Assembly (NCBI RefSeq): GCF_028368995.1 | Contig: NZ_JAQNDL010000001.1 | Location: 2,560,001-2,624,000 of the forward strand | Reading direction: 5' to 3' | DNA: 64,000 bases | Source of the DNA: Nannocystis bainbridge | GTDB taxonomy: Bacteria > Myxococcota_A > Polyangia > Nannocystales > Nannocystaceae | Shown: one piece after another, positions 2,361 through 62,021 of the stretch | Position numbering within the stretch: the stretch's first letter is position 1 | Layout: each line of letters begins with the position of its first letter | Position numbers and translations under genes: made by a program | The notes under the pieces: generated by a model | Database searches by the model: none | Told to the model about the DNA's origin: nothing | What the model saw: the letters and a program-made list of their open reading frames with translations, nothing else

Positions 2361-2454
2361 TTGCATGGTCGAAGCGACATGCGCTTTCCAACATGCCCTC
2401 GGAGACATGCCCTCTCGGACATGCTCTTCGGGACATTCCCGCGAGGACATGTCC
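2361..2454. repeat. 14-bp-period CATG-core array, 7 units
   Basis: Cores at 2364, 2378, 2392, 2406, 2420, 2434 (CATT) and 2448, between convergent genes. Confidence 0.9.
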
Positions 2455-2455
2455 G

Positions 2456-3028
2456 TCAGCGCCGGTACGGGTCGGCGACGCGGGCCAGCAGGGTCGCCTC
2501 GAAGGTGCGCAGCGCGAGCATCGTCCGCCGCAGCTCGGCGAACACGTGCGCCAGGTCGGGGCCGTCCGGGTACAGCACCTCTTCCCACAGGTCGTCGCTG
2601 CGGTCGAACACCCCGCGGCGGAACAGCGCCGCGTAGAAGGGGGCCGGCCCGAGCCCGAGCCCGAGCAGGACCAGGCGATCGCGCTCGTCGAGCCGGCGGA
2701 ACAGCAGCAGCCACTCCCACAGCGCGCGCCGGGCCTCGCCGATCGCGCGGTCGTAGGCGTCGCAGCGGGCCCGCCGACCCCACGGCGTCTCCGGGGCCAG
2801 CGGGTTGTCCCAGTCGGCCAGCGGGGTCGCCAGCGCGTGCCGCACGACGCGCGCCTGGCGGGCCAGCTCGCCGAGCCCGCGGCTCAGGTGGGCCGTGCTC
2901 GGATCGTCGTCGCCGTCGCTGAGGGCCAGCAGCTCGCGCAGCCGGGCGTCCCGCTCGCGCTCCCGCGACCACCAGCGCGCCGCTGCCGCGGCCGTGACCC
3001 CTGCGCCGACGGTGATCGCCCAGCTCAT
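2456..3028 (-). CDS. Hypothetical protein with N-terminal membrane segment
   Basis: MSWAITVGAGVTAAAAARWW..., the ordered C-terminal 190 aa of ORF 2456..3277. Confidence 0.7.
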   Translation of the reverse strand: MSWAITVGAGVTAAAAARWWSRERERDARLRELLALSDGDDDPSTAHLSRGLGELARQARVVRHALATPLADWDNPLAPETPWGRRARCDAYDRAIGEARRALWEWLLLFRRLDERDRLVLLGLGLGPAPFYAALFRRGVFDRSDDLWEEVLYPDGPDLAHVFAELRRTMLALRTFEATLLARVADPYRR

Positions 3029-3239
3029 GCCTTTTAAAAGATGATCGACGCCGGGCGCGAACTCAAGGGCGCCGGGGGGCGCACATTCGCCCGCGACATG
3101 TTCTTTAGGACATGTACGAACATTGCCCGCCCGCCGCGCGACGCCGACGCGGTCGCGCCCTCGCGGCGCTCGCCCGCGCTGCAGCGCAGAGCTCGCCCCG
3201 GCGGCCGCGCGTCCGGCCGGTTCGGTCCCGATCGATCCC

Positions 3240-3920
3240 GCTGCGCGACTCCCGTCTCGCTGGCTCACCCGCATCACCTCCGCCTCGCCTCGTCTCGCGC
3301 CGGTTGCTCGGTCGCCTGGTCTCCTCGTTCTCCGTCGTGTCCGTCTCGCGTCGGTTGACCCGTCGCTCGTCGCCTCCTCGCTCCTCGCATCCGCCTCGCG
3401 TAGACGCTCCGTCGTCGCGCCTCCTCGCCCTTCGTCGCGTCCGTTTCACGTCGTTGCCCCGTCGCCTCGTCTCTCCTTCGTCGCCCCGTCCTTCCGTCGC
3501 GTCCGTTTCGCGTCCTTGCCCCTTCGTCTCGCCCCGTCCGTCCGTCGCGTCCGTTTCACGTGGGTCGCTCTGTCGCCACGCCTCGTCGCCTCGTCGCCTC
3601 GTTCGTCGCCCCGTCCTTCCGTCGCGTCCGTTCACGTGGGTCGCTCTGTCGCCGCGCCTCACCGCCCCGTCTTTCCTTCGCCTCGTCTCGCTCGGCAGCG
3701 TCACCTCGTTCGCGTCCTTCGGCTCCGACACTTCCGCTTCGCCCCGTCGCATCGCTCTCTGCTTCGACGCGACCGTTGCCTCTCTTCCCGCCGCATCTCG
3801 TTCTGCTCCGTCGCTCCGCGTCACTTCCCCCTGCTCTGCCGTCGCCTTCGCTCGTCGCTCGTCCCTTCGCTCCCCTCCACCGCGGCCCGCCTGGCCGCTT
3901 CACGCCTGTTCCGTCTCACC
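3240..3920. repeat. A-depleted low-complexity tract with imperfect repeats
   Basis: The + strand is built almost entirely of CGTC/CTC/CCG words. CGTCGCGTCCGTT(T)C(A/G)CGT recurs at about 3433, 3495, 3543 and 3620. Confidence 0.75.
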
Positions 3921-5506: not shown

Positions 5507-6087
5507 GGCCCGCGGCCGGACACGGCGCCGCCGGTGCGGAGGTTCGCCTCGGCGAGCGCCGCTCGTGCGATAAGAAAGGGCCGTTCGTGCTCGGCAACGA
5601 CGCCGCCGCTCATCCCCTCGAGCCCGAGCTCGACGTGTCCGGCGACCCGTTCGCGGCCAATCCATCGACCTGTCCCTTCAGACAGTTTATTATGCGCCCG
5701 GTCTCGCCGCCGCGGGTCCGCCCGACGCGCCGGGCTCGGCCTTTGTCCGCGCGCGATCGCCTGCTCGCCCCGCCATCCTCGCCGACGGCTCGCGCGCTCG
5801 CCGGGTCGCCCGATCTGGCGCTCCTGACGTATGTGCATAGCCGGCGGCTCGAGCCCGCCGGGTCGGCGCCACCGGCGGACTGCAGACAATCGCGGCCCGC
5901 GGCGCGGCGACCGGAGCGGGGCCGGTTTCGCCTGCGAAGGGCCGCCGGTGGGGAAATTCGGGCCGTCGGCGCCATCACGCTCGGGTCCGCTGCATTGGTG
6001 CCAGTCGTGGCTCCGGGCCATAAGCCCAGCGACCCCTCGGCGCGCCCCGGACCGGCCGGCGCGGCGCCAGGTTCAAGGAGATTCGCC

Positions 6088-6654: not shown

Positions 6655-7140
6655 ATGCCCGCCCGCCTGCGCACCGCCGGTCCGTCCGACGCCGCCGACA
6701 TTCACCGCCTGATCGTCGACCTCGCCACCTACGAGCGCGAGCCGGACGCCGTGGTCGTCACCGTCGACGGGCTGCGGGACCAGCTCGCCGCCGAGCGTCC
6801 GCCCTTCGAGTGCATCCTCGCCGAGGACGACGACGAGGCGGTGGTCGGCTTCGCCCTGTTCTTCCACAACTACTCGACCTGGCGCGGCCGCCCCGGCCTC
6901 TACCTCGAGGACCTGTTCGTCGATCCCACGCGGCGCGGCCGCGGGATCGGCAAGCAGCTGCTCGTGCGCCTGGCCCAGCTCGCCGTCGAGCGCGGCTGCG
7001 CCCGCATGGACTGGGCCGTGCTCGACTGGAACGCCCCGGCGATCGCGTTCTACGAGGCGCTCGGCGCCCGCGCGGTGGCCGACTGGACCATCTTCCGCCT
7101 CACCGGACCTGCGCTCTCGGACCTGGCCCGGACGACATGA
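6655..7140 (+). CDS. GNAT N-acetyltransferase (spermidine/spermine acetyltransferase-like)
   Basis: YSTWRGRPGLYLEDLFV, acetyl-CoA motif RGRGIG and VLDWNAPAIAFY. Confidence 0.93.
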   Translation: MPARLRTAGPSDAADIHRLIVDLATYEREPDAVVVTVDGLRDQLAAERPPFECILAEDDDEAVVGFALFFHNYSTWRGRPGLYLEDLFVDPTRRGRGIGKQLLVRLAQLAVERGCARMDWAVLDWNAPAIAFYEALGARAVADWTIFRLTGPALSDLARTT

Positions 7141-7239
7141 CCTTTCGGTCATTGTGATGACCACCGCTCCGCGCGGACGAATCACCGCACGCCGGATTCA
7201 TGCCCCGTCGCTACCGGCCGGCGCCGGATCAGCGCGCGG

Positions 7240-10865: not shown

Positions 10866-13586
10866 TCATAGCCGATCGAAGCGCAGGTCAACCTCGCGGG
10901 TCACGTGGCCGCGGCGGACGTCGGTCTGTAAAGTCACGGGTGCGAGCAGCTCCGCGAGCCCCGGCGGTGGGATCGCCTCGACCGTGACGTCGCCCTCCGG
11001 CAAGCCCTCCACCGACCAGCGCCCTTCGGTGTCGCTGGTGGTCTCGGCCAGCACGGTGTTGCCGTCGCGCGTGCGCACCGAGAGGCGCGCGCCGGCGACC
11101 GGCTCGCCGCGCTCGTCGGTGACCTCGCCGTCGAGGCCCGCAGCCTCGTCGAGGTCGACCACCAGCGTGGCCGGGGCGCCGCCCGCAGGCCGCGCGACCG
11201 AGTTGCCCACGCCGACCCAGCCGGGCGCCTCGACGCGCACGCGCACCCGCTCGCGCGCCAGCCGGGCGGCCCGCACCTCGCCGGCCTCGTCGGCGGCCCA
11301 CACCTGGCCGTCGACCTCGACGCGCGCGCCGGCGATCGGGTCGCCGCTGCCGGCGGCGCGCACGACGACCTCGAGCGACCAGCCGCGCGCGAGCGTGAGC
11401 TCGACCGGCGCGTCGCCGCGGCTGGCCTTGGCGATCTTCAGGCGCTTGCTGGCGGGCGCGTATTCGGGGTGGTCGAGCTCGAGCGTGGCTGTCCCCGGGA
11501 CCAGGTGCGCCAGCTCGAACAGCCCGCGCGCGTCGGTCCACGTCACCTCGGTCGGGGCCAGCTCGCCCGCGGGCAGCAGCGTCACCCGCACGCCGGCGAT
11601 CGGCTGGTCGTTGCCATCGCGAACCCGGCCCTCGAGCCCGCCCTCGGCCGGTTGCAGGACCTGCTCGATCGCCGTCGCTCGCCCCTCGAGATCGACCTCG
11701 AGCACCGCCGGCACCATGCCCGCCGCGCGGATGATGATCCGCTGCTTGCCGCGGCGATGGCCCGCGCTCCACACGCCGAAGCCGTCGCTCGTCACCACCG
11801 AGCCGTCGGCCAGCTCGATGCGCGCGCCGGCGATCGGCTGGCGGTTGCCGTCGAGCACGCGCCCGCCGAGCGGCACGCCCTGGCCCAGCGTCAGCACCAC
11901 CCCGTCCTCGCGCTCGCCCGGCGTGAGGTCGACGACCACCGTCGCCGAGCCCGCGTGGTCGCCATGGACCGCGCGCAGGCGGTAGCGCCCGGGCATCAAC
12001 GTCTCGAGCGAGAAGTCGCCGCGCTCGTCGGTCTCGGCCCAGGTGCCGACCGTCTCGTCGTCGCCGACCAGCGGGATCGGGGGCACCGCCCCGCGCGTGA
12101 CCCCGAGGCTGCCGCCCCGCTGCAGCGCGGTGAACGTGCGCGCGCGGATCATCGCCTCGCCGGGGCTGTAGAGCGTGTCGGCGTCGACGAAGATCCTGGC
12201 CTCGGGGACAGGTCGCCCGTCGTCGTCGATCACCGTGCCGGCGATCCGGCCCGGGCGCACCAGCGTCAACGTCTGCCGCGCCGGCGCCTCCTTGCCGACG
12301 TCGACGGACAGTGACTCCGAGGGCAAGTAACCGTCGGCGTCGGCGCGCACCACGTAGGGGCCGGGCACCACCGGACCGAGGTCGGCCTGCCCGCGGTCGT
12401 CGGCCTCGGCGATCTGCTGCAACAGACCGACGCTGGCGTAGCCGAGGGTCACGCGGGCGCGCGGCACCGGCGAGCCGTCGGGGCTGACGACCTCCACCGG
12501 CACGCGCTGGGCGGCGATCAGCGCCAGGCTGACGTGCGCGCCGGGGCTCAGGTTCTCGAGCGGGATCGAGGCGTACTCCTGCTCGCCGGGCCGCTCGGCC
12601 CGCACCTGCGCGACCAGCCCGTAGACCCCGTCGACCAGGTCGCCGAACAAAAACTCGCCGCCCGCGCCGGCCGGCTGCACGAGCGGCGGCCACAGCGACG
12701 AGCCCTCGAGCCGCACCTGCGCGCGGCTCACCAGCGCCGGGTCGCCGACCACCGCCCCGCCGAGGTCCTGCAGCGAGTCGACCACGATCACCACCCCGGC
12801 CTCGGGCGCGAACGCCTCGATCACCGACAGCGCGAACCCTTGCCCGGTCGCGCGCAGGCGCAGCGGCCCGGCCGGCACCGTGTCGAGCACGAACGCCCCG
12901 GCCGCGTCGCTGTCGATCCGCCACGGCTCCGGCTCGCCGAGGCCCGGCAGCGGCGTCGCCTCGATGCGCACCCCGACCACCGGCTCGCCGCGCCGATCGA
13001 TCACCTGTCCCTTGAGCCAGGAAGCCGGCCCGAGCGCCAGCGTCGGCAGCACCGCCTCCGTGCCCGCCTGCGCCGGCGCCGTCAGCACCCCGCGCAGGTG
13101 GCCTGGCACCAGCACCTCGATCGTCACCGCCGCCGCCGGTCCGGCCGGCAGCGCCAGGTCGAGCGCGAACTGGCCCTCGGCGTCGCAGCGCGCCTCGGCC
13201 AGCAGGAACCCGCCGCGCCACGCCCGCGCCTTGCACTCGCGCGGCGGCGCCAGCGGCACCGGCGGCCCCTCGGCGCCTGGCTCTTTGTCCAGGGCGCTTG
13301 GGTCATAGCCTTCAGGACCGGTCTCATCGGACATGTCCTTCGCGCCAGGAGCTTCGACCGGCGCCGGCGAGGCCACCCCGACCTCGACCATCACCTTGCC
13401 GCGCACGCGCGCCGGCGGGGCGGTCTCGTCCGGCGCCGCGGTCGCCTCGGCGGGCGGCTCGCCCGTCCCGCCCGCGACCTCGCCGACCTGCCCCGCCTCG
13501 CGCCCGCAGCCGCGCAGGAGCAGCCCGCCGGTGGCCGCGAGGGCGACGACCAGGCCGACGAGCAGCGCCTGGGTTCGTCGCTGCAT
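10866..13586 (-). CDS. Large protein with repeated carboxypeptidase-regulatory-like domains
   Basis: N-terminal membrane anchor and repeated GxVxDxxGxPVxGAxV / TDxxGxF motifs. Confidence 0.85.
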   Translation of the reverse strand: MQRRTQALLVGLVVALAATGGLLLRGCGREAGQVGEVAGGTGEPPAEATAAPDETAPPARVRGKVMVEVGVASPAPVEAPGAKDMSDETGPEGYDPSALDKEPGAEGPPVPLAPPRECKARAWRGGFLLAEARCDAEGQFALDLALPAGPAAAVTIEVLVPGHLRGVLTAPAQAGTEAVLPTLALGPASWLKGQVIDRRGEPVVGVRIEATPLPGLGEPEPWRIDSDAAGAFVLDTVPAGPLRLRATGQGFALSVIEAFAPEAGVVIVVDSLQDLGGAVVGDPALVSRAQVRLEGSSLWPPLVQPAGAGGEFLFGDLVDGVYGLVAQVRAERPGEQEYASIPLENLSPGAHVSLALIAAQRVPVEVVSPDGSPVPRARVTLGYASVGLLQQIAEADDRGQADLGPVVPGPYVVRADADGYLPSESLSVDVGKEAPARQTLTLVRPGRIAGTVIDDDGRPVPEARIFVDADTLYSPGEAMIRARTFTALQRGGSLGVTRGAVPPIPLVGDDETVGTWAETDERGDFSLETLMPGRYRLRAVHGDHAGSATVVVDLTPGEREDGVVLTLGQGVPLGGRVLDGNRQPIAGARIELADGSVVTSDGFGVWSAGHRRGKQRIIIRAAGMVPAVLEVDLEGRATAIEQVLQPAEGGLEGRVRDGNDQPIAGVRVTLLPAGELAPTEVTWTDARGLFELAHLVPGTATLELDHPEYAPASKRLKIAKASRGDAPVELTLARGWSLEVVVRAAGSGDPIAGARVEVDGQVWAADEAGEVRAARLARERVRVRVEAPGWVGVGNSVARPAGGAPATLVVDLDEAAGLDGEVTDERGEPVAGARLSVRTRDGNTVLAETTSDTEGRWSVEGLPEGDVTVEAIPPPGLAELLAPVTLQTDVRRGHVTREVDLRFDRL

Positions 13587-15420: not shown

Positions 15421-15444
15421 CGCGCGGCTGTCCGCAAAGACATC

Positions 15445-15512
15445 CGACATGTCCCCCCAGACATGTCGTGACTCGGTGCATCAGGCGGTGACATGCCCCT
15501 GAAGACATGTCT
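15445..15512. repeat. 14-bp-period CATG-core pairs
   Basis: Cores at 15448/15462 and 15492/15506. Confidence 0.75.
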
Positions 15513-15623
15513 CCGAAGCCAGGCGACCGCGCCGGCCGCCCGCCGCCCGGCTCTCGCGGACCGCCGCTGCGCCGTCCCCTGACCGGCGCCGCCGGCCCGC
15601 GACATCCTCTGCTATGGTGGGGC

Positions 15624-15929: not shown

Positions 15930-17086
15930 TCCCGTTCGAGCTCGCGACCGCCGCGCGCATCGTGTTCGGCGTCGGCGTCGCCGCCCAGGTCGGCCCGATC
16001 GCCGCCGAGCACGGGCGCCGCGCCCTCGTCGTCACCGGCCGCGACCCGGCCCGCGCCGAACCTGTCCTCGAGGCCATGCACGCCGCCGGCCTCGAGCTGT
16101 CCGTGTTCACCGTCGCCGGCGAGCCGACGGTCGCCGACGCCGAGCGCGGGGTCGTCGCCGCCCGCGCCTGCGCCTGCGACGTGGTGGTGGCGATCGGCGG
16201 CGGCAGCCCGCTCGACGCCGGCAAGGCGATCGCCGCCCTCGTGCGCAACCCCGGCCCGCCGCTCGACTACCTCGAGGTCGTCGGCCGCGGCCGCCCGCTC
16301 GTCCACGACCCGGTGCCCTTCGTCGCCGTGCCGACCACCGCCGGCACCGGCTCCGAGGTCACGCGCAACGCCGTGCTCGCGGCCGAGGACCAGCGCGTCA
16401 AGGTCAGCCTGCGCAGCCCGAAGATGCTGCCGCGCGCCGCGATCGTCGACCCCGCGCTGACGCTGTCGCTGCCGCCGGCCGTGACCGCCGATTGCGGCCT
16501 CGACGCCCTCACCCAGTTGATCGAGCCGTTCTTGTCGCGCAGGGCCAACCCGATCACCGACGCCCTGTGCCGCGACGGCATCGCTCGGGCCGCCCGGGCC
16601 CTGCCGCGTGCGTTCGCCGACGGCAGCGACCTCGAAGCCCGCAGCGACATGGCCCTCGCCAGCCTGCTCGGCGGCCTCGCCCTCGCCAACGCCGGCCTCG
16701 GGGCCGTGCACGGCTTCGCCGGCCCGATCGGCGGCGCCTTCCCCGACGCCCCGCACGGGGCCGTGTGCGCCCGCCTGCTGCCCGAGGCGCTGCGGATCAA
16801 CGCCCGCGCCCTGCGAGCCCGCGAGCCCACGAGCCCGGCCCTGGCCCGCTTCGACGAGGTCGCCCGCCTCGTCACCGGCGACCCCGCCGCCACGCTCGAC
16901 CACGCGGTCGACCACCTGCGCGCCCTGGTCGCGTCGCTGCAGATCCGCCCGCTCGCCGCGTTCGGCCTGCGCGCCGCCGACCTGCCCGCGCTCGTCGAGC
17001 GCGCCCGCCAGGCCAGCAGCATGAAGGCCAACCCGCTCGACCTCACCGACACCGAGCTGCACGAGGCCCTGGCAGCCGCGCTTTAA
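15926..17086 (+). CDS. Iron-containing alcohol dehydrogenase
   Basis: [28 protein letters not shown] and PHG motifs. GTGA overlap with the upstream gene. Confidence 0.93.
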
Positions 17087-17165
17087 GACATGCCCCTAAC
17101 AGCATGCTCTTGAGGACATGCCCCATACGACATGCCCTTATCGACATGTCTTGACGAGCATGTTG
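17086..17165. repeat. 14-bp-period CATG-core array, 6 units
   Basis: CATG at 17089, 17103, 17117, 17131, 17145 and 17159, starting at the ADH stop codon in a convergent junction. Confidence 0.92.
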
Positions 17166-17236
17166 ATGATCTGACCGACGAGCCAGCGACGAGCGACTCC
17201 GTCCTGGTCTCACGGGCCTGTCGCCTTGCCGGGCGC

Positions 17237-19911: not shown

Positions 19912-20352
19912 GCGGCCCGACCTCGAAAGCGCCCCCAGTGTGGCGAGCGCCGCGGCCGGTTCAAGCGATCGAACAATTGTTCGCGAGCTCGCGACCTCCG
20001 GGTCACGCGCGAGGCCGTCGGTCGCGACGGCGACGCAGCGCTGTGACAGGTCCCGCGCGCCCAGTGCTCCCGCGATCTTCCATCCCACCCCTCCGGCGCT
20101 CCCCCGCCCCCACGCATCACTCGCGCCCCCGGCGCGCGGAAAGCTTCCGCATCACCCGATCCTCCGCGCCCACCACCACCTGTCTCAAGAGACATCCTCA
20201 TCCACATCTCCGCCCCCGAAGCCCCGCCGCCTCGCACTCCCTGTCCTTCAGGACATCTCGCTGACCTGCGAGTCCTCCCGGCCTCACCCTGCTCTCTGCC
20301 CGCAAACGCCCCCTCGGACCCTCGCGCCGCGCGTGTTAGGCTCGCCGCCGCC

Positions 20353-21222: not shown

Positions 21223-21231
21223 GGCGCTTGC

Positions 21232-21283
21232 GAGCATGTCCCCGGGGGCATGTCCCCGAGAACATGCCCCGAAGGTCATGCGC
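21232..21283. repeat. 14-bp-period CATG-core array, 4 units
   Basis: CATG at 21235, 21249, 21263 and 21277 in a convergent junction. Confidence 0.9.
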
Positions 21284-21289
21284 GCCGCG

Positions 21290-21771: not shown

Positions 21772-22572
21772 TCAGCCCGGCTTGCGCATGAACACCAGGT
21801 ATTGGTACGGCAAAAGCTCGCGGTCGGTCCGCTCGTGGGTGAGCCCGAGCTTGGTCAGGTGCGCCGCCACCAGAGTGTCGTCGACCCGCATCGCCGCCGG
21901 CGGCCCCGGGGCGTCATCCGGCGCGTCTTTCTTGAAATCGACGACCACCAACAGCCCGCCGGGCTTCAGCGCCTCGCGGACCTTGCCGAAGAAGCGCGTC
22001 GGCTCGTCGATGTGATGATAGGTGTCGACCATCAGCGCCACGTCGAGGCCGGCAGGCAGCTTCGGATCGGCCACGTCGCCCTGGGCCGTGGTCACGTTGG
22101 CGAGCCCCTCCTTGGCCGCGCGCTCGCCGATCCATCGCACCATGCCGGGCTCGAGGTCGTTGGCGATCACACGCCCCTGGGGCACCGCCGCGGCCAGCCG
22201 CACCGTGAAGTAACCGGTGCCCGCGCCGAGGTCGGCCACCGTCATCGCCGGCGTCAACTGCAGCGCCGCGACCACCTCGTCCGGCTTCTGCCAGGCCGCG
22301 CGCTCGGGGCTGTCGAACTGGGCCGTCCACTCGGCCGGATCGGTGAAGCGATGGCCCTTGTGGTGCCCGCGCCCGCGGTGGTCGGAGTAGGCCTGCGCCT
22401 CCTCCTCGTGCTCCTGGGCGTGGAAGGCCCGCTCCTTGCTGGCCTCGTGGTCATGTCCCTCAGGACCTGCCTTCTCGGACATGTTCTTCGGGTCCTGTCC
22501 CGGGGACCCGGCGGGCGGCTTCCCGCACCCGACCAGGGCCCCGGCGATCGCGGCGATCACGGCGGTTCGCAT
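21772..22572 (-). CDS. Class I SAM-dependent methyltransferase with lipoprotein signal
   Basis: RAAWQKP, VADLGAGTGYF, DTYHHI and LKPGG. The N-terminus is MRTAVIAAIAGALVGC. Confidence 0.9.
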   Translation of the reverse strand: MRTAVIAAIAGALVGCGKPPAGSPGQDPKNMSEKAGPEGHDHEASKERAFHAQEHEEEAQAYSDHRGRGHHKGHRFTDPAEWTAQFDSPERAAWQKPDEVVAALQLTPAMTVADLGAGTGYFTVRLAAAVPQGRVIANDLEPGMVRWIGERAAKEGLANVTTAQGDVADPKLPAGLDVALMVDTYHHIDEPTRFFGKVREALKPGGLLVVVDFKKDAPDDAPGPPAAMRVDDTLVAAHLTKLGLTHERTDRELLPYQYLVFMRKPG

Positions 22573-23261: not shown

Positions 23262-23280
23262 GATGCCCCCTCGCCCGCCC

Positions 23281-41910: not shown

Positions 41911-42092
41911 CGGCGTCCTCGGCCTCTATGTCCTTCGGGACAGACCAGCGGACCCGCGCCCCGACGCATCGCCGCCGCTGCTCGACGGCGTCCTCGGCCT
42001 CTATGTCCTTCGGGACAGACCAGCGGACCCGCGCCCCGACGCATCGCCGCCGCTGCTCGACGGCGTCCTCGGCCTCCATGTCCTTCGGGACA
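41911..42092. repeat. 75-bp tandem repeat, about 2.4 copies
   Basis: The unit beginning CGGCGTCCTCGGCCTCTATGTCCTTCGGGACAGACC starts at 41911, 41986 and 42061 (partial). Confidence 0.92.
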
Positions 42093-42428
42093 TCCCACGG
42101 GGTCCTGCCCCCGACGCCCCGACGTCGATCGAACATGGCCCCGGGGACATGTCGATGGCGCCGCCCCGGCGTCCGGCGCTCCGCCGTCACCGCCTCCGCC
42201 GGCCCTCCGCGCCGCTCCCACCGGGCCCGTCGCGGCCGCTCCCCCCGCTGCCGCAGCGTCGCCTGCCATTTTTTTAAGCATGTCTTCTTCGCCATCTCGG
42301 ATCTCCCTCTCGCGCGACGCGAACGACCCGGAGCGCCTGCGCGCCCCGGGCCCCTGGAAGACCGACCGACGGGCGCGCGGCTCGCTCCCTGGCGCGAGCG
42401 CGGCTGTGCGGGCGGTCGGCGGCGGCGG

Positions 42429-46484: not shown

Positions 46485-46490
46485 CCGTTC

Positions 46491-46528
46491 GGACATGCCC
46501 GACGGGACATGCCCCTTCGGGCATGTCC
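46491..46528. repeat. 14-bp-period CATG-core array, 3 units
   Basis: CATG at 46494, 46508 and 46522 in a convergent junction. Confidence 0.85.
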
Positions 46529-46535
46529 CGAATCA

Positions 46536-49288: not shown

Positions 49289-49861
49289 GTGGAGGCCGCG
49301 CGCAAGCTCAAGACCTACGAGGATCTGCTGGCGATCCCCGAAGAGGTGCGCGCCGAGCTGCTCGCCGGCGAGATCATCGCCCAGCCCGGCGGCCTGTCCG
49401 ATCACAGCCGCGTGCAGCGCAGCATGAGCCGCTTCATCGGCGGCCCTTTCGACGACGACACCGACGGCCCGGACGGTTGGTGGATCTTCCTCGAGATGGA
49501 CGTCCGCTTCACGCGCCACGACGTCACCCGCCCGGACCTGGTCGGCTGGCGCCGCTCCCGGCTGCCCGCTCCCGCCGGCATGCGCCCGATCGACGTCGTC
49601 CCCGACTGGATCTGCGAGGTCCTCTCGCCCTCCAACGCCCGCCACGACCGCGTGTTCAAGGCCCGGCTGTACGCCGAGCACGGCGTCCCTTATTACTGGC
49701 TGATCGACCCGGCCGAGCGGACCCTCGAGGCTTATGTCCTTCGGGACAGCCAGTGGCTGCGCGCCGGCGCCTGGGACGACACCGAGGTCGCCCGCGTCCC
49801 GCCGTTCGAGGCCATCGAGCTGCCGGTCGGTCGGCTGTTCTTCCCGCGGCCGCCGACCTGA
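49289..49861 (+). CDS. Uma2-family endonuclease, paralog of 26023..26604
   Basis: RPDLVGW, PDWICEVLSPS and GVPYYWLIDP. Confidence 0.9.
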   Translation: MEAARKLKTYEDLLAIPEEVRAELLAGEIIAQPGGLSDHSRVQRSMSRFIGGPFDDDTDGPDGWWIFLEMDVRFTRHDVTRPDLVGWRRSRLPAPAGMRPIDVVPDWICEVLSPSNARHDRVFKARLYAEHGVPYYWLIDPAERTLEAYVLRDSQWLRAGAWDDTEVARVPPFEAIELPVGRLFFPRPPT

Positions 49862-49871
49862 CCCTTCGGCC

Positions 49872-50774
49872 ATGTTGCACCCGCCCCTCAGCGACGCCCG
49901 CCTCGGCGCCCGCGTGCACCGGCTGGTCGGCCCCGACGCCGGCCCCGCGCAGCGCGAGCTCGCCGCCCGCGCCCTCGTGCCTGCCTCCGGCAGCGACACC
50001 TGGCTCGCGCTCTATCACCTGTGGGCGCTCGGGCACGCGCCGCACGCCGACATCGCCGGTCGCACCGCCGTCGAGCTCCCGGGCCCTGCCATCTTCGCCG
50101 CCCTGGCCGACCCGCTGCTGCCCGCCCCCGCGCTCGACTTCATGGCCCGCCGCCGGCTCACCCACGCCGACGAGCTCGCCGTGCTCGTGCGCCACCCGCA
50201 GGTCGACGCCGACACCCTCGCGCTGGTCGCCCGCTGCGGCCCCCCGCGCGCCTGCGAGGCGATCGCCCTCGCGCACGCGCGCATGCTCGCCGCCCCCGCC
50301 ATCCTCGCCGCCCTCGCCCGCAACCCGCGCTGCCCGGGCGCCATCCTCCACGCGGCCGTCGAGCTCGGCGCCCGCGAGCGCGCCCCCGGCCTGCGCGGCC
50401 TGCTGCAAGCCTTGCTCTCGGGACATGTCCCTCACGACAGGTCCGACGATCACGCCGCGCGCCAGCTCGCCGCCCTCCGCTCGCGCGCCGGCGACGACCT
50501 CGACCCGGCCCCGCCGCTGCCGCCCGATCCGCCCGTCGACGACCTGCCGGTCCCGCTCGCGCCCGCGCTCGCCCCTCTGCCGCTTGCGCCCGCCAGATCG
50601 CTCCCACCGCCCGCCGCCGGCGTCGCCTGCGTCCTCGATCCCACGACCCCGCTGCCGCTGGCGATGAGCCTGCTGTGGCGCCTGCGTCGGCCCGACCTGC
50701 GCCGCGTCGCCGACGCCCGCCGCCTCCCCCGCCCGCTCGTCGCCGCCGCCCGCCGGAGGCTCGGCCCATCATGA
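49872..50774 (+). CDS. Hypothetical helical-repeat protein
   Basis: ATG 49872, Leu/Ala-rich with LVRHP and LARNPRCP motifs. Confidence 0.55.
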   Translation: MLHPPLSDARLGARVHRLVGPDAGPAQRELAARALVPASGSDTWLALYHLWALGHAPHADIAGRTAVELPGPAIFAALADPLLPAPALDFMARRRLTHADELAVLVRHPQVDADTLALVARCGPPRACEAIALAHARMLAAPAILAALARNPRCPGAILHAAVELGARERAPGLRGLLQALLSGHVPHDRSDDHAARQLAALRSRAGDDLDPAPPLPPDPPVDDLPVPLAPALAPLPLAPARSLPPPAAGVACVLDPTTPLPLAMSLLWRLRRPDLRRVADARRLPRPLVAAARRRLGPS

Positions 50775-52049: not shown

Positions 52050-52616
52050 ATGAGCTTCCACCTCTACAACCGACACGCCCAGGCCCACGTCGGCAAGCGC
52101 TTCCCCGGCGCCACCGTCCTCGACCTGACCTCGCGCGGACCTGACCCATGGGTCAGGTTCAGCCCCTTCTACCCGCACGGCGCCATCCCCTTGCCGTTCA
52201 CCCCTGGCCGCACCGCCGCCTCGGTCGAGGGCGTGTGGCAGGCGCTCAAGGTGTTCGCCACCGAGGACGTCGACCCGAGCAAGCTCGACGTCACCGCCAT
52301 GAAGGGCCTCAAGCGCACCGTGCGGCGCCTGGGCGCCTGCCTCGGCCACCGCGACGGCCTCGGCGGCGCGCGCCTGCTGGCGTACGGCGAGGCGCGCCGG
52401 CAGATCTACCTGCCCACCTACCGCTGGGTCCTGGACCATCACCTCGGCGCCGAGCTCGCCGAACTGCGCCGCCTCGGCGCCGAGGGCCCGGTCGTCCTGC
52501 TCGACTACGAGACCAACCCCGACCCCGACGACCTCAGCCGCCCGCTGTCCCACGTCGGCCTGGTCATCCACCTGCTCCAAGGGACATGGCCGCAAGAACC
52601 TGTCCCTTCCGCCTGA
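52050..52616 (+). CDS. DUF6939-like protein
   Basis: DLTSRGPDPWVRFSPFYPHG...SVEGVWQALKVF...ARRQIYLP...LLDY...PLSH. Family recalled from memory, not searched. Confidence 0.7.
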   Translation: MSFHLYNRHAQAHVGKRFPGATVLDLTSRGPDPWVRFSPFYPHGAIPLPFTPGRTAASVEGVWQALKVFATEDVDPSKLDVTAMKGLKRTVRRLGACLGHRDGLGGARLLAYGEARRQIYLPTYRWVLDHHLGAELAELRRLGAEGPVVLLDYETNPDPDDLSRPLSHVGLVIHLLQGTWPQEPVPSA

Positions 52617-52914: not shown

Positions 52915-53334
52915 GTCCCCTCTATGCCCCAGCCCTCGCCGGCCCGCCACGCGCCCTTCCGCGCGGCGCACATTCGCCCGGCGCGACCGTGCGCATCACA
53001 TGTCCTTCAAGACATGTTCATGGGCGATTGCGCCCCGCTCCGCCCGGTTCGGAGATCGACCTGGCGGAAAGGACAGCACCCGATCTTCACTACTTCACGA
53101 TTTAAACATGTCCTCAAAGACATGTAAACCGTCCAAGCGGCGGCATCTTCGTCAGCTCGAGCAGCATCGCGACAGCGACACCAGCCCTGCAGGCCGATCG
53201 TCACCCGCAGGCGGGTGAGCGGTCACGCTCTTGGCGCGTCGGAGATCATGTCCCTTGGGACATGCCGTCCCACCGCGCCCCGAATCCGCTGCGTCAACAT
53301 GCGAGCCAGCGGCAGCGTGCCACCGGCGCGAGCA

Positions 53335-55058: not shown

Positions 55059-55322
55059 GCTCGGTCATCCAGGCCAATATATGTCCCGAGGGACAGGCGC
55101 CGCCGCGCGGGCGACCTGTCCTTCGAGACATCACCAGCCGCGCCATCCGCCGCATGTCCCTCGGGACACTTTTATTCGAGTCGCCGCGGCTCGCCCCCGA
55201 GAGCCCCGGCGTGCTCGGCAGGCCGCTGCGGCCCTGCGCTGGCCCCGGCGGCCCCGCGGACGGGGTTCGCCGGCCGCCCGCTGTAGCCGGCGCGACAACG
55301 TGCCACACTCGCCCGCGCCCGC

Positions 55323-57026
55323 ATGTCGCCCCTCGAGCCCAAGCGCCGCGCGCTCCTGCGCTGGACCGTCGGCTACACGCGCCCTGACTTCACCGCCGAC
55401 CTGCTGGCGGGCGCGACCACGGCGGTGCTGCTCGTGCCGCAGGCGATGGCTTACGCCATGCTCGCCGGCCTGCCGCCGATCGCTGGCCTCTACGCCGCCC
55501 TCGCCCCGCCGCTCGTCTACGCCGTGCTCGGCACCTCGCGGCGGCTCGCGGTCGGCCCCGTCGCGCTCGACTCGCTGCTCACCGCCGCCGCTCTTGCTCC
55601 GCTGGCTGGCGGCGACCTCGGCACCTACGTGGCCGCGGCCGCCGCCCTGGCGATCCTCGCTGGCAGCTTCCAGGCGCTGACCGGCGCCCTGCGCCTCGGC
55701 TTCGTCGTCAACTTCCTCTCGCTGCCGGTGCTGCGCGGCTTCACCTCGGCCGCCGCGATCCTCATCATCGCCAGCCAGCTCGGCTCGTTGCTCGGGCTGC
55801 GGCTGCCGAGCAGCGCCGCCATGTGGCCGCTGCTCGTCGCCCTCGCCGAGCAGTTGCGGGCCGTGCACCTGCCGACCGTCGCCCTCGGCCTCGGCGCCGT
55901 GCTCACCCTCGTCGCCCTCGGCAATTTCCGCGGCAAGGCCCTGCTCGTGGTCGTGCTCGCCACCGTCGCCGGGCACCTGTTTGCCCTCGACGACCGCGGC
56001 CTCGCCCTGCTCGGTCCGGTGCCCTCGGGCCTGCCCGTGCCGACGTGGCCCGCCGTCGACGGCGAGTTGCTGCTCGCCCTCGCCCCCGCGGCCGCGCTGA
56101 TCGCCCTCATCTCGTTCATGGAGGCGTTCTCGTCCGGTCTCGCCGTCGCGCGCCGCGGCGAGGTCGTCGAGCCCGACCAGGAGCTGCTCGCGCTCGGCTT
56201 CGCCAACATCGCCGCCGGCCTCGTGCGCGGCTACCCGATCGCCGGCGGCCTGTCGCGCACCGCCGTCAACGCCCAGGCCGGCGCTCGCAGCCCGCTCGCC
56301 GGCGTCGTCACGGCCGCGATCGTCGCCCTCACCCTCGCGCTGTTCGCCCCGCTGCTCGCCACGCTGCCGCGCGCCGTGCTGTCGGCGATCATCGTCGTCG
56401 CCGTCGCGCGCCTGGTCGACGTCGCGTTCGTCCGTCAGCTCCGGCGCACTCGCCCCCGCGAGCTCCTGCCGCTGGCGATCACCTTCGCCACCACCCTCGC
56501 GCTCGGCGTCGGCCTCGGCCTCGCGTTCGGCGTCGGCGCCTCGCTGCTGCTGTTCGTGCTCCGCACCACCCGCCCGCACACCGCCTTGCTCGGCCGCCTG
56601 CCGGGCACGCAGGTCTACCGCAACGTCCTCCGCTTCCCCGACGCCGAGACCGTGCGCGGGGTCGTGATCATCCGCCTCGACGCGCCGCTGTACTTCGCCA
56701 ACGCGACCTACCTGATCGACGAGATCCGGCGCCGGATCGCCGCCGAGCGCGCGCGCGCGGTGGTGATCGACGCCGGCGGCGTGCACGACATCGACGTCTC
56801 GGCGCTCGCCAACCTGCGCGAGTTCCTCGGCGAGCTGCGCCAGCACGGCATCGACCTGTACTTCGCCGACCTCAAGGGCCCCGTGCGCGACGTCCTGGCC
56901 CGCAGCGGCCTCACGGCGGAGCTCGGCCCCGACCGCTTCAGCTTCACCACCCACGAGGCGGTCCAGCGCGCCAGCGACGGCCTCGCCGCCTCGCCCGATC
57001 CAAGGGCGACGCAAGCCTGGCCGTGA
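55323..57026 (+). CDS. SulP-family anion transporter with STAS domain
   Basis: DLLAG...PQAMAYAMLAGLPP..GLY, SRTAVN and STAS motif LYFANA...ID.S. Confidence 0.94.
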   Translation: MSPLEPKRRALLRWTVGYTRPDFTADLLAGATTAVLLVPQAMAYAMLAGLPPIAGLYAALAPPLVYAVLGTSRRLAVGPVALDSLLTAAALAPLAGGDLGTYVAAAAALAILAGSFQALTGALRLGFVVNFLSLPVLRGFTSAAAILIIASQLGSLLGLRLPSSAAMWPLLVALAEQLRAVHLPTVALGLGAVLTLVALGNFRGKALLVVVLATVAGHLFALDDRGLALLGPVPSGLPVPTWPAVDGELLLALAPAAALIALISFMEAFSSGLAVARRGEVVEPDQELLALGFANIAAGLVRGYPIAGGLSRTAVNAQAGARSPLAGVVTAAIVALTLALFAPLLATLPRAVLSAIIVVAVARLVDVAFVRQLRRTRPRELLPLAITFATTLALGVGLGLAFGVGASLLLFVLRTTRPHTALLGRLPGTQVYRNVLRFPDAETVRGVVIIRLDAPLYFANATYLIDEIRRRIAAERARAVVIDAGGVHDIDVSALANLREFLGELRQHGIDLYFADLKGPVRDVLARSGLTAELGPDRFSFTTHEAVQRASDGLAASPDPRATQAWP

Positions 57027-57089
57027 CATGTCTACGAAGACATGCTCCTAAGAGCATATCCTCAAGAACATGTCCCTCGTGACATGTCT
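57024..57089. repeat. 14-bp-period CATG-core array, 5 units
   Basis: CATG 57027, CATG 57041, CATA 57055, CATG 57069 and CATG 57083, starting at the sulP stop codon. Confidence 0.92.
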
Positions 57090-57214
57090 CAAAGAATGAG
57101 ACCGTCTGCGTCCCCGAGCCGCGGACTCCTCGTCGCTCTCCGGAGTTGCAACGCGTCGTCCGCGTCGCGCACGAGCCGCCGCGCGAGGCCTCGCGCGACG
57201 GCCCGTCGCTCCTC

Positions 57215-58163: not shown

Positions 58164-58564
58164 GTCGCGTCCACCCTAGCCGACCCGGGCCCGCGGTTCA
58201 AGCCGCCGCCGCGGTCGTCGAACTTCATGTCTCATGGGACATGTTTTAGTTCGGCACCTCTCCCGCGAGCAGGCGCGCACGGCGACGAGAATGTCGGATG
58301 GGACATGTCCCGTCGACCATCCCATGTTTCGGCGAACGGCACCGGCCCACCCCGCGAGGACCTGCCCACCGCCGCGTCCGCTCGCCGCCGACGGCATGAA
58401 AGCGAGCGCCTCGTCCCCGCCCAATCGCGCGCCAGCGCCCGCGGCGACGACCTCGCGCAAAACGCCCTCCAGCGGCCCCGGCGGGCGCCTCCCCGCCGGT
58501 TCGGATGGTCCGCTCCAGATAACGCAGCTCGCGTATACGAGCCCTGCAACCCCGGGCGAACACC

Positions 58565-58984: not shown

Positions 58985-59028
58985 TTTTTAAAGACATGGC
59001 TTGAAGGACATATCGCTTATCTGACCTG

Positions 59029-59511: not shown

Positions 59512-59680
59512 GGGCCTGTGATCTTGTCGCCTGCCTCGATCCGCCGACGCCCGCGACTTACGAGACCCGCGGGTCGACGCGCATCTCCGGAGATCGTCAG
59601 CGGCTCGGGGCCACGGGCGCACGCGCGCATGGCCCTGGAACCCCGCCAAACAGCCCTTCTCGTGCTTTTTTGCGCCGATC

Positions 59681-59707
59681 GGGAACCCGCGGCGGCCCCG
59701 CCCGTGA
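59681..59707 (+). promoter_or_regulatory. Putative autoregulatory ECF promoter GGGAAC-N16-CGTGA
   Basis: GGGAAC 59681-59686, 16 nt, CGTGA 59703-59707, ending 9 nt before the sigma GTG. Confidence 0.7.
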
Positions 59708-59716
59708 CACCCTCCC

Positions 59717-60328
59717 GTGACCGCCCTCGCCTCGCGGGACCCTGACGCCGTGCAGCCCCGACCACCGCCCGACGAGCTCGACGAACTCACCCTGGCCCGC
59801 GCGCAGCGGGGTGACGCGAGGGCGCGCAGGGACCTCGTGGTGCGCTACCAGCGGCCGGTGTTCGCCCTGCTGTCGCGCATGCTGCACGGGCGAGCCGCCG
59901 CGCCGCTGGTCGAGGACCTGGCCCAGGAGACCTTCTTGCGGGTGTTTCGCGCCCTCGAGGGCTTCGATCGCCGCGGCCCGGCGCGGCTCTCGACCTGGAT
60001 CTTGACGATCGCCAGCCGGCTGGCGATCGACGAATTGCGGCGGCGCCGGCCCGAGGTCGCCCCGATCGATCCGTCCGCCGAGCCTGCGGGCCACGCCGCC
60101 GCCGACGCCGACGCCGAGCGCGTGCGTCTGGCCGCTGCCCTGCAGCACGCGATCGACGATCTGTCCCCCGAGTTCCGCGCCGCCTTTATGCTGCGCGAGT
60201 ACCACGAGCTCGAATACTCCGAGATCGCCGACAACCTGCAGGTCGATCTCGGCACCGTGAAGTCTCGACTGTCTCGCGCTCGCGCCGCCCTGCGCCGCGC
60301 CCTGGAGGAGGTGTACCGTGCACGATGA
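59717..60328 (+). CDS. ECF RNA polymerase sigma factor
   Basis: Region 2 EDLAQETFLRVF...LSTWILTIA and region 4 LEYSEIA...GTVKSRLSRAR. Confidence 0.94.
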   Translation: MTALASRDPDAVQPRPPPDELDELTLARAQRGDARARRDLVVRYQRPVFALLSRMLHGRAAAPLVEDLAQETFLRVFRALEGFDRRGPARLSTWILTIASRLAIDELRRRRPEVAPIDPSAEPAGHAAADADAERVRLAAALQHAIDDLSPEFRAAFMLREYHELEYSEIADNLQVDLGTVKSRLSRARAALRRALEEVYRAR

Positions 60329-62021
60329 ACCCCGCACCGACGCCGAGCGCCGCGCCCTCGCGGCGTTCACCGCTGCCGAGCCGCCGCCCGACTTCGCCGA
60401 CCGCGTGCTCGCGGCCGTCGCCGCCGAGGGCCAGCGCGAGCCCGGACATGTCCCGCTCGGCCGCCTGTTCGGCCTCGGCTGGCCCCGCCTCGCCGGCGTC
60501 GCCGCGGCCGGGGTCGTCGCCGTCGCCGTCGCTGCGGTCGCCGCCGCGTCCGCCGGCTGGATGCCCGCATGGACAGGTCTCTCGCGACATGTCCCCGAGG
60601 TCATGCCCGCCGAGCCCGCGCGCGACGACGCCCCGGTGACCGCGGCTCTGCCCCCGGGCCCGCCGACGCCAGCGCTGGCGCTGCCGGCCGACCTCGCGGA
60701 CCGCGTCGACGCCTACGTCGGCGCGTTCGGCCGCAACTACGGCGACGCCTTCAAGTTCCACGGCGTGGTCGGCGTGGTCAAGGACGGCGAGCTGGTGCTG
60801 ACCCGCGGCTACGGCCGGGCCGACATCGAGCGCGACAGCCCGATCGACGCCGACACGAAGTTCAAGATCGGCTCGCTGACCCAGACCTTCACCGCAGTGG
60901 CGGTGCTGCAGCTGCGCGACCGCGGCCTCGTCGACCTCGACGCACCTGTCCGCAAGTACATCCCCGACTATCCGGCGCTCGGCAACCGGATCACCGTGCG
61001 CCACCTGCTCACCCACACCTCGGGGATCCCCAGCTACACCGACGCGGCCGTGTTCGCGGTCGGGCACACGCGCGCCGTCGCGGCCGCCGACGTGCGGGCG
61101 ATCTTCCAGGACATCGAGCTGGAGTTCGCGCCGGGCACCGACTTCGACCTCAGCAACTCGGGTTATTTCATGCTCGGGCTGTTGGTCGAGCAGGTCGCGC
61201 GCCAGCCGTTCGCCGACTACCTGCGGGAGAACGTGCTCGCGCCCGCGGGTATGAAGAACAGCGGGGTCGGCCTCGCCGCGACCGCGCTCGGCCACGAGTT
61301 CGACGAGAACGAGGTGCTCGTGCCCGCGGCGCAGCGCCATCCTTCGGCCTACGGCGCGGCCGCCGGCATGGTCTCGACCGCCGCCGACCTGGCCCGCTGG
61401 GACCGCGCCCTGCGCACCCCGGGCCTCGTGCTGGCGCAGAAGAGCCTCGACGAGATGACGACCGTCGTGCGCGACGAGTACGGCATGGGCTGGTTCGTGC
61501 GCACCGACGCCACCGGACCTATCGCCTGGCACCCCGGCGGCGTCGAGGGTTACAACGCCACGATCGCCCGCTTCCTCGGCGACGGCGTGACCGTGTTCGT
61601 GCTGGCCAACACCGAGGCCGTCGACACCCGCGCGATCGCCTACGACGTGGCGCAGATCGCCCACGGCGGCGACGTCGCGCCGCCGCGCGAGTACGACGAG
61701 ATCCGGCTTTCGAGCGCGCAGCTCGGTCGCTACGTCGGCACCTTCGCGTTGACCGAGACGTCGCACAAGCAGCTGAAGGGCTTGGTCGAGGACGGCGAGC
61801 TCCTGGCGATCGAGCAGGTCCGCGTGTTCCGCACCGGCGACCGCCTGTGGATGAACGTGCCGGAGCACGGCGACAAATGGATGCACTTCATGGGCGACGA
61901 CCGGTTCTTCTTCAAAGATCCGTCGGCCACGATCGCCGAGTTCGGGCCTCCGGGCGCCCCCGTCGCTCATCTCACGCTGCAGTCCGGGGAACTGCGTTTC
62001 ATCCTCAAGAAGAAGGAGTGA
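60318..62021 (+). CDS. Putative anti-sigma factor fused to a beta-lactamase/serine-hydrolase-family domain
   Basis: Overlaps the sigma stop. N-terminal PPPDFADRVL plus a transmembrane helix, then F.IGSLTQ, LLTHTSG, F.PG..FDLSNSGY and WHPGG. Confidence 0.85.
   Translation: MHDEPRTDAERRALAAFTAAEPPPDFADRVLAAVAAEGQREPGHVPLGRLFGLGWPRLAGVAAAGVVAVAVAAVAAASAGWMPAWTGLSRHVPEVMPAEPARDDAPVTAALPPGPPTPALALPADLADRVDAYVGAFGRNYGDAFKFHGVVGVVKDGELVLTRGYGRADIERDSPIDADTKFKIGSLTQTFTAVAVLQLRDRGLVDLDAPVRKYIPDYPALGNRITVRHLLTHTSGIPSYTDAAVFAVGHTRAVAAADVRAIFQDIELEFAPGTDFDLSNSGYFMLGLLVEQVARQPFADYLRENVLAPAGMKNSGVGLAATALGHEFDENEVLVPAAQRHPSAYGAAAGMVSTAADLARWDRALRTPGLVLAQKSLDEMTTVVRDEYGMGWFVRTDATGPIAWHPGGVEGYNATIARFLGDGVTVFVLANTEAVDTRAIAYDVAQIAHGGDVAPPREYDEIRLSSAQLGRYVGTFALTETSHKQLKGLVEDGELLAIEQVRVFRTGDRLWMNVPEHGDKWMHFMGDDRFFFKDPSATIAEFGPPGAPVAHLTLQSGELRFILKKKE

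Follow-up and report, generated by a model that had tools for sequence, protein, structure and literature searches.

In enterobacteria and pseudomonads, repetitive extragenic palindromic (REP) units and bacterial interspersed mosaic elements (BIME) have a debated function, with termination, mRNA stability and chromosome organisation all under discussion. REP units are imperfect palindromes of about 20-40 nt that form a stem-loop alone and carry a GTAG or CGTC head. Here we describe rows of a 14-bp palindromic unit, hereafter arrays, that recur at 46 loci in a 64,000-nt stretch of the genome of Nannocystis bainbridge (Myxococcota, Polyangia, Nannocystales; contig NZ_JAQNDL010000001.1, positions 2,560,001 to 2,624,000), the whole of which we call the window. 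The arrays resemble REP/BIME in being hyper-abundant short palindromes that are clustered, mostly extragenic and 3' of genes, and capable of forming hairpins, but they differ in their 14-bp unit, which is either a gapless 10-bp palindrome or a pair of 5-bp arms around a 4-nt gap, and in their strict abutting lattice. They are a dispersed-palindrome kind of repeat with an unusually strict lattice. Our tentative best explanation, which we regard as quite possible though short of probable, is that they form a repeat family of the Nannocystis lineage that behaves like REP/BIME without belonging there.

Palindromic or short units standing head to tail in fixed phase are also found in the tandem operators of small dimeric repressors and in plasmid partition sites, where each unit takes one dimer and neighbouring dimers touch. 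By analogy, these would be the closest mechanistic counterparts of a row of abutting palindromes, but they serve a few promoters or one centromere per replicon, whereas here an array is found about every 1.4 kb, mostly at gene ends. The Rickettsia palindromic elements, single insertions of about 100-150 bp that lie in frame in genes and are translated as extra loops, share with our arrays the in-frame translated palindromic copies but have no 14-bp lattice. The short palindromes and tandem repeats of cyanobacteria and the uptake sequences of Neisseria and Pasteurellaceae occur about once per kb, sometimes as terminator pairs. They too are lineage-specific short motifs located both within and between genes, and we know of none described as a strict 14-bp palindrome lattice. 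CRISPR arrays consist of repeats of about 23-50 bp and unique spacers of similar length, accompanied by cas genes; a CRISPR array is ruled out here by the 10-bp core, the 4-nt spacer, the 46 loci and the lack of any cas domain among the window open reading frames (ORFs) searched with Pfam (50 and 31). Finally, the canonical operator of the PadR family, the inverted repeat ATGT-N8-ACAT (PMC4517056), is spelled exactly by the junction of two of our units, but PadR proteins are described as local regulators with one or few operators, and the Pfam-searched window ORFs include no PadR gene (no PF03551 hit).

Rfam 15 gave no match in the window at gathering score, and blastn with two arrays found none in plasmid and phage collections, a weak negative because short repeats are hard for BLAST. 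The full-text literature searched, subscription journals and supplements apart, contained no description of this repeat family, and among the papers listed for the core 10-mer, mostly on p53 sites, there was no bacterial repeat. An earlier reading of the same DNA from its letters alone (the sequence-only reading) had likewise recognised no described family, which is borne out in Rfam 15 and in the literature searched.

A 14-bp lattice and its place between genes

The tetramer CATG, at the centre of the unit, occurs 245 times in the window (72.5% G+C). Pairs of CATG sites lie 14 bp apart 37 times, 28 bp apart 17 times and 42 bp apart 14 times, and never 13 or 15 bp apart. In 200 dinucleotide-preserving shuffles the means at 14, 28 and 42 bp were 0.46-0.50 and the maximum was 3; when each site was jittered by +-60 bp, which keeps the local density, the maxima over 1000 trials were 8, 7 and 7. 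The peaks above a shuffled background that the sequence-only reading had called for are present in the window. Strict chaining of CATG gives 26 arrays that take in 70 of the 245 sites, and a rule of at least 8 of 10 core matches gives 30. A symmetrised weight matrix was built from 62 phased units, and a call required a pair of units at 14-bp spacing in which each scored above 3 bits and both together above 12 bits. It finds 77 pair positions against 0.45 false pairs per shuffled sequence. These positions resolve to 124 units in 46 arrays, an average of roughly one array every 1.4 kb, where more than 30 loci had first been proposed; weak intragenic two-unit hits at 16056, 60940 and 63512 may be chance. 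All arrays of that earlier list were located at its coordinates, though several of its units are near-units with CATT (2429 unit), CATA (57050 unit, 59009), AATG (36229 unit) or CCTG (38998, 39026), and the register it had traced across decayed units from 23284 to 23410 is indeed 9 x 14. There is next to no probability that chance, compositional bias or codon periodicity lies behind the arrays. We found no point in support of such an origin; the pair counts stand far above the shuffle maximum, 14 is no multiple of 3, and comparably GC-rich loci of other lineages (1.34 Mb) are without such arrays beyond two-unit hits. Chance and composition are ruled out as the source by the shuffles, the weight-matrix background and the non-Nannocystis loci.

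The unit consensus is roughly R-GGACATGYCC-Y followed by two or three free bases. Its building block is a 14-bp palindrome that can be written as a gapless core, GGACA/TGTCC, plus 4 free bases, or as a 5-4-5 inverted repeat, TGTCC-N4-GGACA. Successive blocks adjoin head to tail and keep strictly to a 14-bp grid, and because the palindromic core recurs every 14 bp, a row is readable as abutting TGTCC-N4-GGACA inverted repeats. Conservation was measured on 26 "middle" units, picked solely for having good units on either side: the C-A-T-G positions carry 1.15-1.53 bits, GGA and YCC 0.6-1.0, and the spacer nil. The spacers (n=77) comprise 45 different 4-mers with a Y-Y-N-R leaning (0-0.3 bits). 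GTCC-N4-GGAC is present 21 times in the window, versus 0-3 times for other gap lengths between 0 and 15 bp, and solitary units or remnants away from arrays account for 13 of these 21; gapless GGAC-N2-GTCC is present nine times, just once outside arrays. Large arrays mostly start and finish with whole cores. Among window units of more than 9 bits, 39 neighbours stand at 14 bp and none at 12, 13, 15 or 16 bp, and the corresponding loci of Nannocystis sp. RBIL2 (L001) and Nannocystis exedens DSM 71 (L002) together add 21 neighbours at 14 bp, with no 13- or 15-bp spacing among them. In a few places neighbouring arrays stand 30, 44 or 58 bp from each other and so are 2 bp off a common register. The unit junctions yield 20 exact ATGT-N8-ACAT sites in 64 kb, the inverted repeat expected of a PadR operator, versus 0-1 at other spacings of 0-16.

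The units are lopsided, with C at unit position 9 in 22 cases and G at position 4 in nine. GC skew is negative in 15 of the 16 4-kb bins of the window (down to -0.157; C 25,355 versus G 21,026), irrespective of gene strand. This skew looks like a replication-strand effect, and the units share the asymmetry more strongly.

The arrays fill gaps at gene 3' ends, chiefly between convergent genes, and are tolerated in frame in protein linkers. Their density by position is given below for our own gene map, which rests on codon bias and Pfam, so that a few gap classes could be wrong.

Convergent gaps: 37 units in 1,233 nt (30 per kb); 9 of 11 gaps occupied
Tandem gaps: 32 units in 5,675 nt (5.6 per kb); 10 of 25 gaps occupied
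Divergent gaps: 11 units in 4,269 nt (2.6 per kb); 3 of 12 gaps occupied
Coding DNA: 44 units in 52,821 nt (0.83 per kb)

Convergent gaps are thus 36-fold denser in units than coding DNA, and 80 of the 124 units fall in the intergenic 17% of bases. A tenth convergent gap (26605-26755) has two decayed remnants, and six of the eight arrays with at least four units lie in convergent gaps. Array starts are often 0-23 nt from stop codons, and an array may nearly fill its gap (70 of 78 nt at 36184-36261; 56 of 67 nt at 21223-21289). This location outside genes and at 3' ends is that of REP/BIME, though 13 of the 46 arrays are within gene calls. The arrays, weak hits and related units are as follows, in window coordinates.

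2359..2456, array of 7 units, convergent gap; directly adjoins the stop of gene 2456-3028 (minus strand)
3021..3048, array of 2 units, divergent gap
3092..3119, array of 2 units, divergent gap
5664..5691, array of 2 units, tandem gap, 3' of a P450 gene
6082..6109, array of 2 units, directly ahead of the start at 6112
7117..7158, array of 3 units, convergent gap; overlaps the GNAT stop
13299..13340, array of 3 units, within the CarboxypepD_reg gene near its 5' end; translated
15443..15470, array of 2 units, 23 nt past the PPIase stop
15487..15514, array of 2 units, PPIase 3' gap; 44 bp from the array at 15443 and 2 bp off register
16056..16083, weak 2-unit hit (8.4, 5.4 bits), in the Fe-ADH gene; may be chance
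17084..17167, array of 6 units, convergent gap; begins at the Fe-ADH stop codon
17988..18015, array of 2 units, within the PA14 gene; found in three species
20174..20201, array of 2 units, divergent gap
20235..20262, array of 2 units, divergent gap
21230..21285, array of 4 units, fills a 67-nt convergent gap; RBIL2 orthologue has the same cores and altered spacers
22447..22502, array of 4 units, methyltransferase gene start, downstream of the HAD gene stop
23279..23306, array of 2 units, gap between crtB and the HAD gene
23363..23418, array, past the crtB stop; in register with 23279 (84 bp = 6 x 14)
24441..24482, array of 2-3 units, last crtI codons; three species, spacer scrambled
26640..26745, two decayed remnants (GTCC-N4-GGAC at 26644 and 26730), Uma2/Lhr convergent gap
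27411..27438, array of 2 units, within Lhr, translated; three species
28155..28196, array of 3 units, within Lhr; three species
30502..30599, array of 7 slots, Lhr linker; translated as a 14-aa repeat; 42 bp longer than in RBIL2 and DSM 71
33887..33928, array of 3 units, within the PMT_2 gene
34286..34313, array of 2 units, within the PMT_2 gene; expanded in DSM 71 as 42-bp repeats
35008..35049, array of 3 units, begins 1 nt past the PMT_2 stop
36187..36256, array of 5 units, fills a 78-nt convergent gap; orthologous RBIL2 and DSM 71 gaps are without it
39007..39062, array of 4 units, 87-nt convergent gap
39745..39772, array of 2 units, past the stop of a sigma-54 activator gene
39792..39819, array of 2 units, gap past the sigma-54 activator gene; four arrays there in each of RBIL2 and DSM 71
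41930..42091, three solitary TGTCC-TTCG-GGACA units, one in each copy of a 75-bp tandem repeat
42129..42156, array of 2 units, stretch without coding signal
42274..42301, array of 2 units
46489..46530, array of 3 units, fills a 51-nt gap; unit 3 is very nearly the reverse complement of unit 2
49852..49879, array of 2 units, spans the Uma2 stop to the next gene's start
50419..50446, array of 2 units, within a hypothetical gene
52580..52607, array of 2 units, 9 nt ahead of the DUF6939 stop
52994..53021, array of 2 units
53102..53129, array of 2 units
53242..53269, array of 2 units, 66 nt past a lectin gene stop
55110..55137, array of 2 units, 52 nt past a stop; solitary units at 55083 and 55156
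57022..57091, array of 5 units, convergent gap, overlaps the SulP stop; a single long hairpin is predicted for the minus-strand RNA (z -6.4)
58221..58248, array of 2 units, divergent gap
58285..58312, array of 2 units, divergent gap
58990..59017, array of 2 units, second core CATA, convergent gap, beside a GC-rich inverted repeat
60569..60610, array of 3 units, likely start of a beta-lactamase-family gene
60940..60967, weak 2-unit hit (5.3, 8.7 bits), in a gene; may be chance
63512..63539, weak 2-unit hit (6.3, 9.5 bits), in a gene; may be chance

The 75-bp tandem repeat (41906-42092; 2.5 copies, 98% identity), each copy of which has one TGTCC-TTCG-GGACA, lies in a 1.1-kb stretch without coding signal or Pfam hit (41311-42428). 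Another stretch without coding signal, 3029-4294 (1.3 kb), is located upstream of the P450 gene and contains tandem repeats, rich in C and with 62- and 76-bp periods (3363-3671), that are unrelated to the 14-bp family. Long ORFs of the mechanical list often start at an ATG within an array (3112, 6102, 17132, 21236, 24461, 35014, 46509, 58234 and others), and the coding signal of these ORFs starts further downstream.

Arrays in relatives and within genes

The genes of the window look like those of a myxobacterium, and its Lhr helicase is 90% identical to those of N. exedens DSM 71 and Nannocystis sp. RBIL2. In both relatives the locus shows synteny with the window from 17.2 to 40.3 kb, and genes there are 85-90% identical at the nucleotide level. 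Array densities in these loci, in four Nannocystis metagenome-assembled genomes (MAGs) and elsewhere are listed below.

Window: 46 arrays in 64 kb (7.2 per 10 kb)
RBIL2 (L001): 19 arrays in 24.6 kb (7.7 per 10 kb)
DSM 71 (L002): 18 arrays in 24.6 kb (7.3 per 10 kb)
Nannocystis MAG L005: 4 arrays in 5.0 kb (8.1 per 10 kb)
Nannocystis MAG L006: 2 arrays in 4.8 kb (4.2 per 10 kb)
Nannocystis MAG L010: 6 arrays in 24.7 kb (2.4 per 10 kb)
Nannocystis MAG L004: 2 weak arrays in 18.4 kb (1.1 per 10 kb)
74 non-Nannocystis loci: 26 two-unit hits in 1.34 Mb (0.19 per 10 kb)

Among the relatives that the sequence-only reading had suggested surveying, RBIL2 and DSM 71 have the arrays at 7.3-7.7 per 10 kb. 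Because density drops to 0.19 per 10 kb in the 74 non-Nannocystis loci (median G+C 68%, other Myxococcota included), with no hit of more than two units, the family seems restricted to Nannocystis and close relatives, as far as 80 loci can tell. Two Acidobacteriota loci retrieved for their Lhr (L080 14266-16406, L037 15514-18607) hold unrelated heptamer and 14-bp tandem repeats, which give their own 7/14-bp autocorrelation signal.

The arrays are old, at positions largely shared by the three species. Across the syntenic 23 kb, arrays near 18014, 22500, 23400, 24480, 27440, 28200, 30590, 33930, 34300 and 39790 are common to all three, as is occupation of the gap 20063-20299. The array ending at 21285 is shared with RBIL2 only, DSM 71 having remnants; that at 35008 is shared with DSM 71 only; and that at 39007 has a possible two-unit counterpart in DSM 71 alone, at a site offset by about 10 bp (near 38996). 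Only the window shows the array at 36187, and DSM 71 has an extra one near 27760. The rest of each intergenic gap is unalignable among the three species and, to judge from these alignments, intergenic gaps turn over completely between the window species and RBIL2. At the RBIL2 site corresponding to window array 36187-36256 (L001 4610-4860) there is a different repeat of about 45 bp with no 14-bp units.

Pairwise identity was measured on six ungapped orthologous intragenic arrays. The four central bases are identical in 37-39 of 39 comparisons and the arms in 24-33 of 39; the spacers are 69% identical and the flanking coding sequence (42+42 nt) 90%. In the single ungapped intergenic orthologue pair, cores are 72%, spacers 25% and nominal flanks 27% identical. 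The array at the end of crtI illustrates this: after some 60 bases without a difference comes a core that is also unchanged, then six bases that are scrambled and a second unchanged core. From this comparison of orthologues, cores and grid outlast neutral sequence.

Three intragenic arrays lie in the 4.7-kb Lhr gene. The largest, at 30502-30599, is read through by a frame of 1,558 residues with Pfam helicase domains on either side, and it translates as a 14-residue repeat: KGHAPKGMLKETAP / EGHVREGMSEETSP. When aligned with 13 other Lhr proteins, this stretch proves to be a linker insertion: the window, RBIL2, DSM 71 and L006 have it, L010 and L004 have a short or different form, and the seven non-Nannocystis sequences of the alignment lack it. 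Arrays change by whole units and, inside genes, by 42 bp (three units, 14 codons): the window Lhr array is 42 bp longer than those of RBIL2 and DSM 71, and the DSM 71 copy of the PMT_2-gene array has expanded with a 42-bp period. CATG is lost in every third unit of the window Lhr array, exactly where the frame would make it Thr-Cys; these copies are therefore edited by selection on the protein. His is encoded in the window by CAC 309 times and by CAT 48 times, and 11 of those CAT codons lie within array units.

We had considered arrays with a CAGG/CCTG "variant core" as a separate subfamily, and rejected this since the window Lhr case is explained by the loss of CATG in the Thr-Cys frame. In the more distant MAG L010, three intragenic Lhr arrays (10775-10838, 13892-14012) keep the 14-bp grid with the non-palindromic GGACAGGTC core in every unit, so that all units carry CAGG, and the intergenic array at 16745 mixes both cores. 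The GGACAGGTC-core arrays of L010 may be a lineage variant of the 14-bp family.

Hairpins, a putative binding protein and competing explanations

Folding of six arrays on both strands gave 12 of 12 structures more stable than shuffles (z -3.5 to -6.4), usually with the G-rich minus strand as the more stable fold; stable hairpins require at least two units. Complementarity was also assessed over 56 adjacent unit pairs of intergenic arrays, summed over ten mirrored position pairs. Adjacent units are complementary at mirrored positions 255 times versus 224.3 +- 9.1 expected (p about 0.0007), while the control, mirrored identity, was below expectation (86 versus 99.9). There was no excess of same-position identity between adjacent intergenic units (238 versus 231.7), nor of within-unit complementarity beyond consensus (176 versus 171.7). 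In ten intergenic arrays with at least three slots, spacers of the same array match as reverse complements at a mean of 1.63 of 4 bases versus 1.11 between arrays (p 0.002), and directly at 1.55 versus 1.12 (p 0.004). The view of units as independent motif draws without covariation is withdrawn in the light of this modest excess, and the arrays bear modest marks of local duplication and of dyad symmetry beyond consensus. The claim of the sequence-only reading that recent slippage did not produce the arrays survives in part: adjacent units are not near-identical, but spacers within an array are more alike than those of different arrays.

We propose that a sequence-specific, probably dimeric, protein recognises each unit, because core and register are conserved while the spacers are free, and that the arrays may also work, or grow, as hairpins, because neighbouring units and same-array spacers show excess complementarity. 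Arrays would gain and lose whole units and persist where they are harmless or useful, at facing gene ends or in in-frame loops. The likeliest role would be that of a 3'-end boundary element for both facing genes, through transcript end formation, protection or a supercoil sink, and copies away from gene ends would be tolerated passengers. A PadR-like winged-helix protein is a possible lead for the binder, because the unit junctions spell ATGT-N8-ACAT.

Several points weigh against this explanation. As the sequence-only reading had noted for a binding protein and a transposase, the Pfam-searched window ORFs include no repeat-linked binding protein, nuclease or Y1 transposase (RAYT). The REP heads are not enriched in the 92 array flanks of 12 nt, with GTAG found 0 times (1.6 expected), CTAC once (1.2), CGTC six times (11.2) and GACG four times (6.6). 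Each of the per-position covariation tests over all arrays was non-significant; only the summed tests reached significance, after several looks at the data, and their effects are modest. Intragenic core conservation could partly be protein-level constraint, the core containing His and Met codons, and the gene map carries the uncertainty given above. An ordinary GC-rich inverted repeat, seen by eye at 59028-59065 beside the two-unit array of a convergent gap, indicates that the genome also has conventional hairpins at gene ends. T-tract terminator-like sites, for their part, are barely above shuffles over positions 1-60000, with 30 sites (10 versus 5.6, 6 versus 2.9 and 14 versus 4.7). A few of them overlap arrays or solitary units (e.g., 15445-15468, 55155-55168, 58226-58243); with the sites this near to shuffle background, we rejected arrays as intrinsic T-tract terminators.

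The sequence-only reading had put first a cooperative duplex lattice, in which the dimers of one protein assemble every 14 bp, three to four helical turns, to organise the chromosome or block polymerases at gene ends, with no part for hairpins. We consider this account doubtful as a whole. The strict register with no 13- or 15-bp spacing, the conserved core beside a free spacer, the solitary operator-like 5-4-5 units, the 20 ATGT-N8-ACAT sites and the concentration of units between convergent genes all speak for it, and the dimeric protein itself is supported by the core information and by the cores and register kept in orthologues. It does not predict the reverse-complement excess of neighbouring units and spacers, however, which points to hairpin biology or inverted duplication, and no candidate protein is found among the Pfam-searched window ORFs. 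A strong transcription roadblock is argued against because 13 of the 46 arrays are intragenic, including the 7-slot array among the three in Lhr, where it would harm. The alternative of that reading, an unrecognised REP-like element, fits the distribution better because 9 of 11 convergent gaps are occupied, but neither the size nor the tags of REP are found.

An account at the RNA level only, with stable hairpins, transcribed into the 3' ends of the two facing genes, acting as terminators without T-tracts or as exonuclease blocks and with no dedicated protein, would agree with the stability of all 12 folds, the 3'-end bias of the units, the excess complementarity and the near-background number of T-tract sites in the 60 kb scanned. 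We nevertheless hold it to be decidedly unlikely: a hairpin needs complementarity, not one fixed sequence across loci and species, and its loop could vary by +-1 nt, whereas the spacing never departs from 14. Solitary units have mere 5-bp arms, arrays also occur in divergent gaps and inside genes, and the core is kept across species. A sequence-biased repair, methylation or DNA-uptake drive has been proposed for hyper-abundant short palindromes and uptake sequences of other bacteria. The arrays are very improbably the by-product of such a drive on the CATG-centred palindrome, followed by slippage, even though CATG is the best-kept part of the unit, units occur in genes as well as between them, and the rare His codon CAT is kept in arrays. 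A single-site drive leaves the strict lattice and the 36-fold density difference unexplained, and CATG is not enriched outside chains (245 in total, 70 chained, about 177 expected from shuffles).

The dispersed REP-like family thus remains the explanation that we prefer. The window also encodes two Uma2 paralogues (PF05685, nuclease-like) at 26023-26604 and 49289-49861, 23 kb apart. The Uma2 copy of RBIL2 cross-hits the second window copy at 72% identity, and that copy has a solitary unit at 49736. There is nothing for these paralogues as the cognate enzyme beyond their presence.

Implications of the repeat family

If the sampled density (83 arrays in 113 kb of three genomes) holds genome-wide, an 11.3-Mb Nannocystis contig would carry about 8,000 arrays, and this would be a very abundant bacterial repeat family. 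A bolder and rather unlikely possibility is a protein-DNA lattice at gene ends, in which a dedicated dimer, perhaps a PadR-like winged-helix protein, polymerises on abutting 14-bp operators and insulates facing transcription units. Three dimers would then occupy four helical turns, the filament would serve as a bidirectional boundary or supercoil sink at several thousand arrays per genome, and it would constitute a kind of chromatin at gene ends with no described bacterial counterpart.

The in-frame copies illustrate how such repeats can extend proteins by loops of 14 residues, and the ATG codons within arrays are traps for start-codon annotation. With its unusually clean anatomy of one palindrome, a fixed grid, free spacers and almost all convergent gaps filled, this family makes it testable whether REP-like repeats serve as 3'-end signals, as landing pads for proteins, or are junk. 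It would also bear on how very GC-rich bacteria without T-tract terminators end their transcripts.

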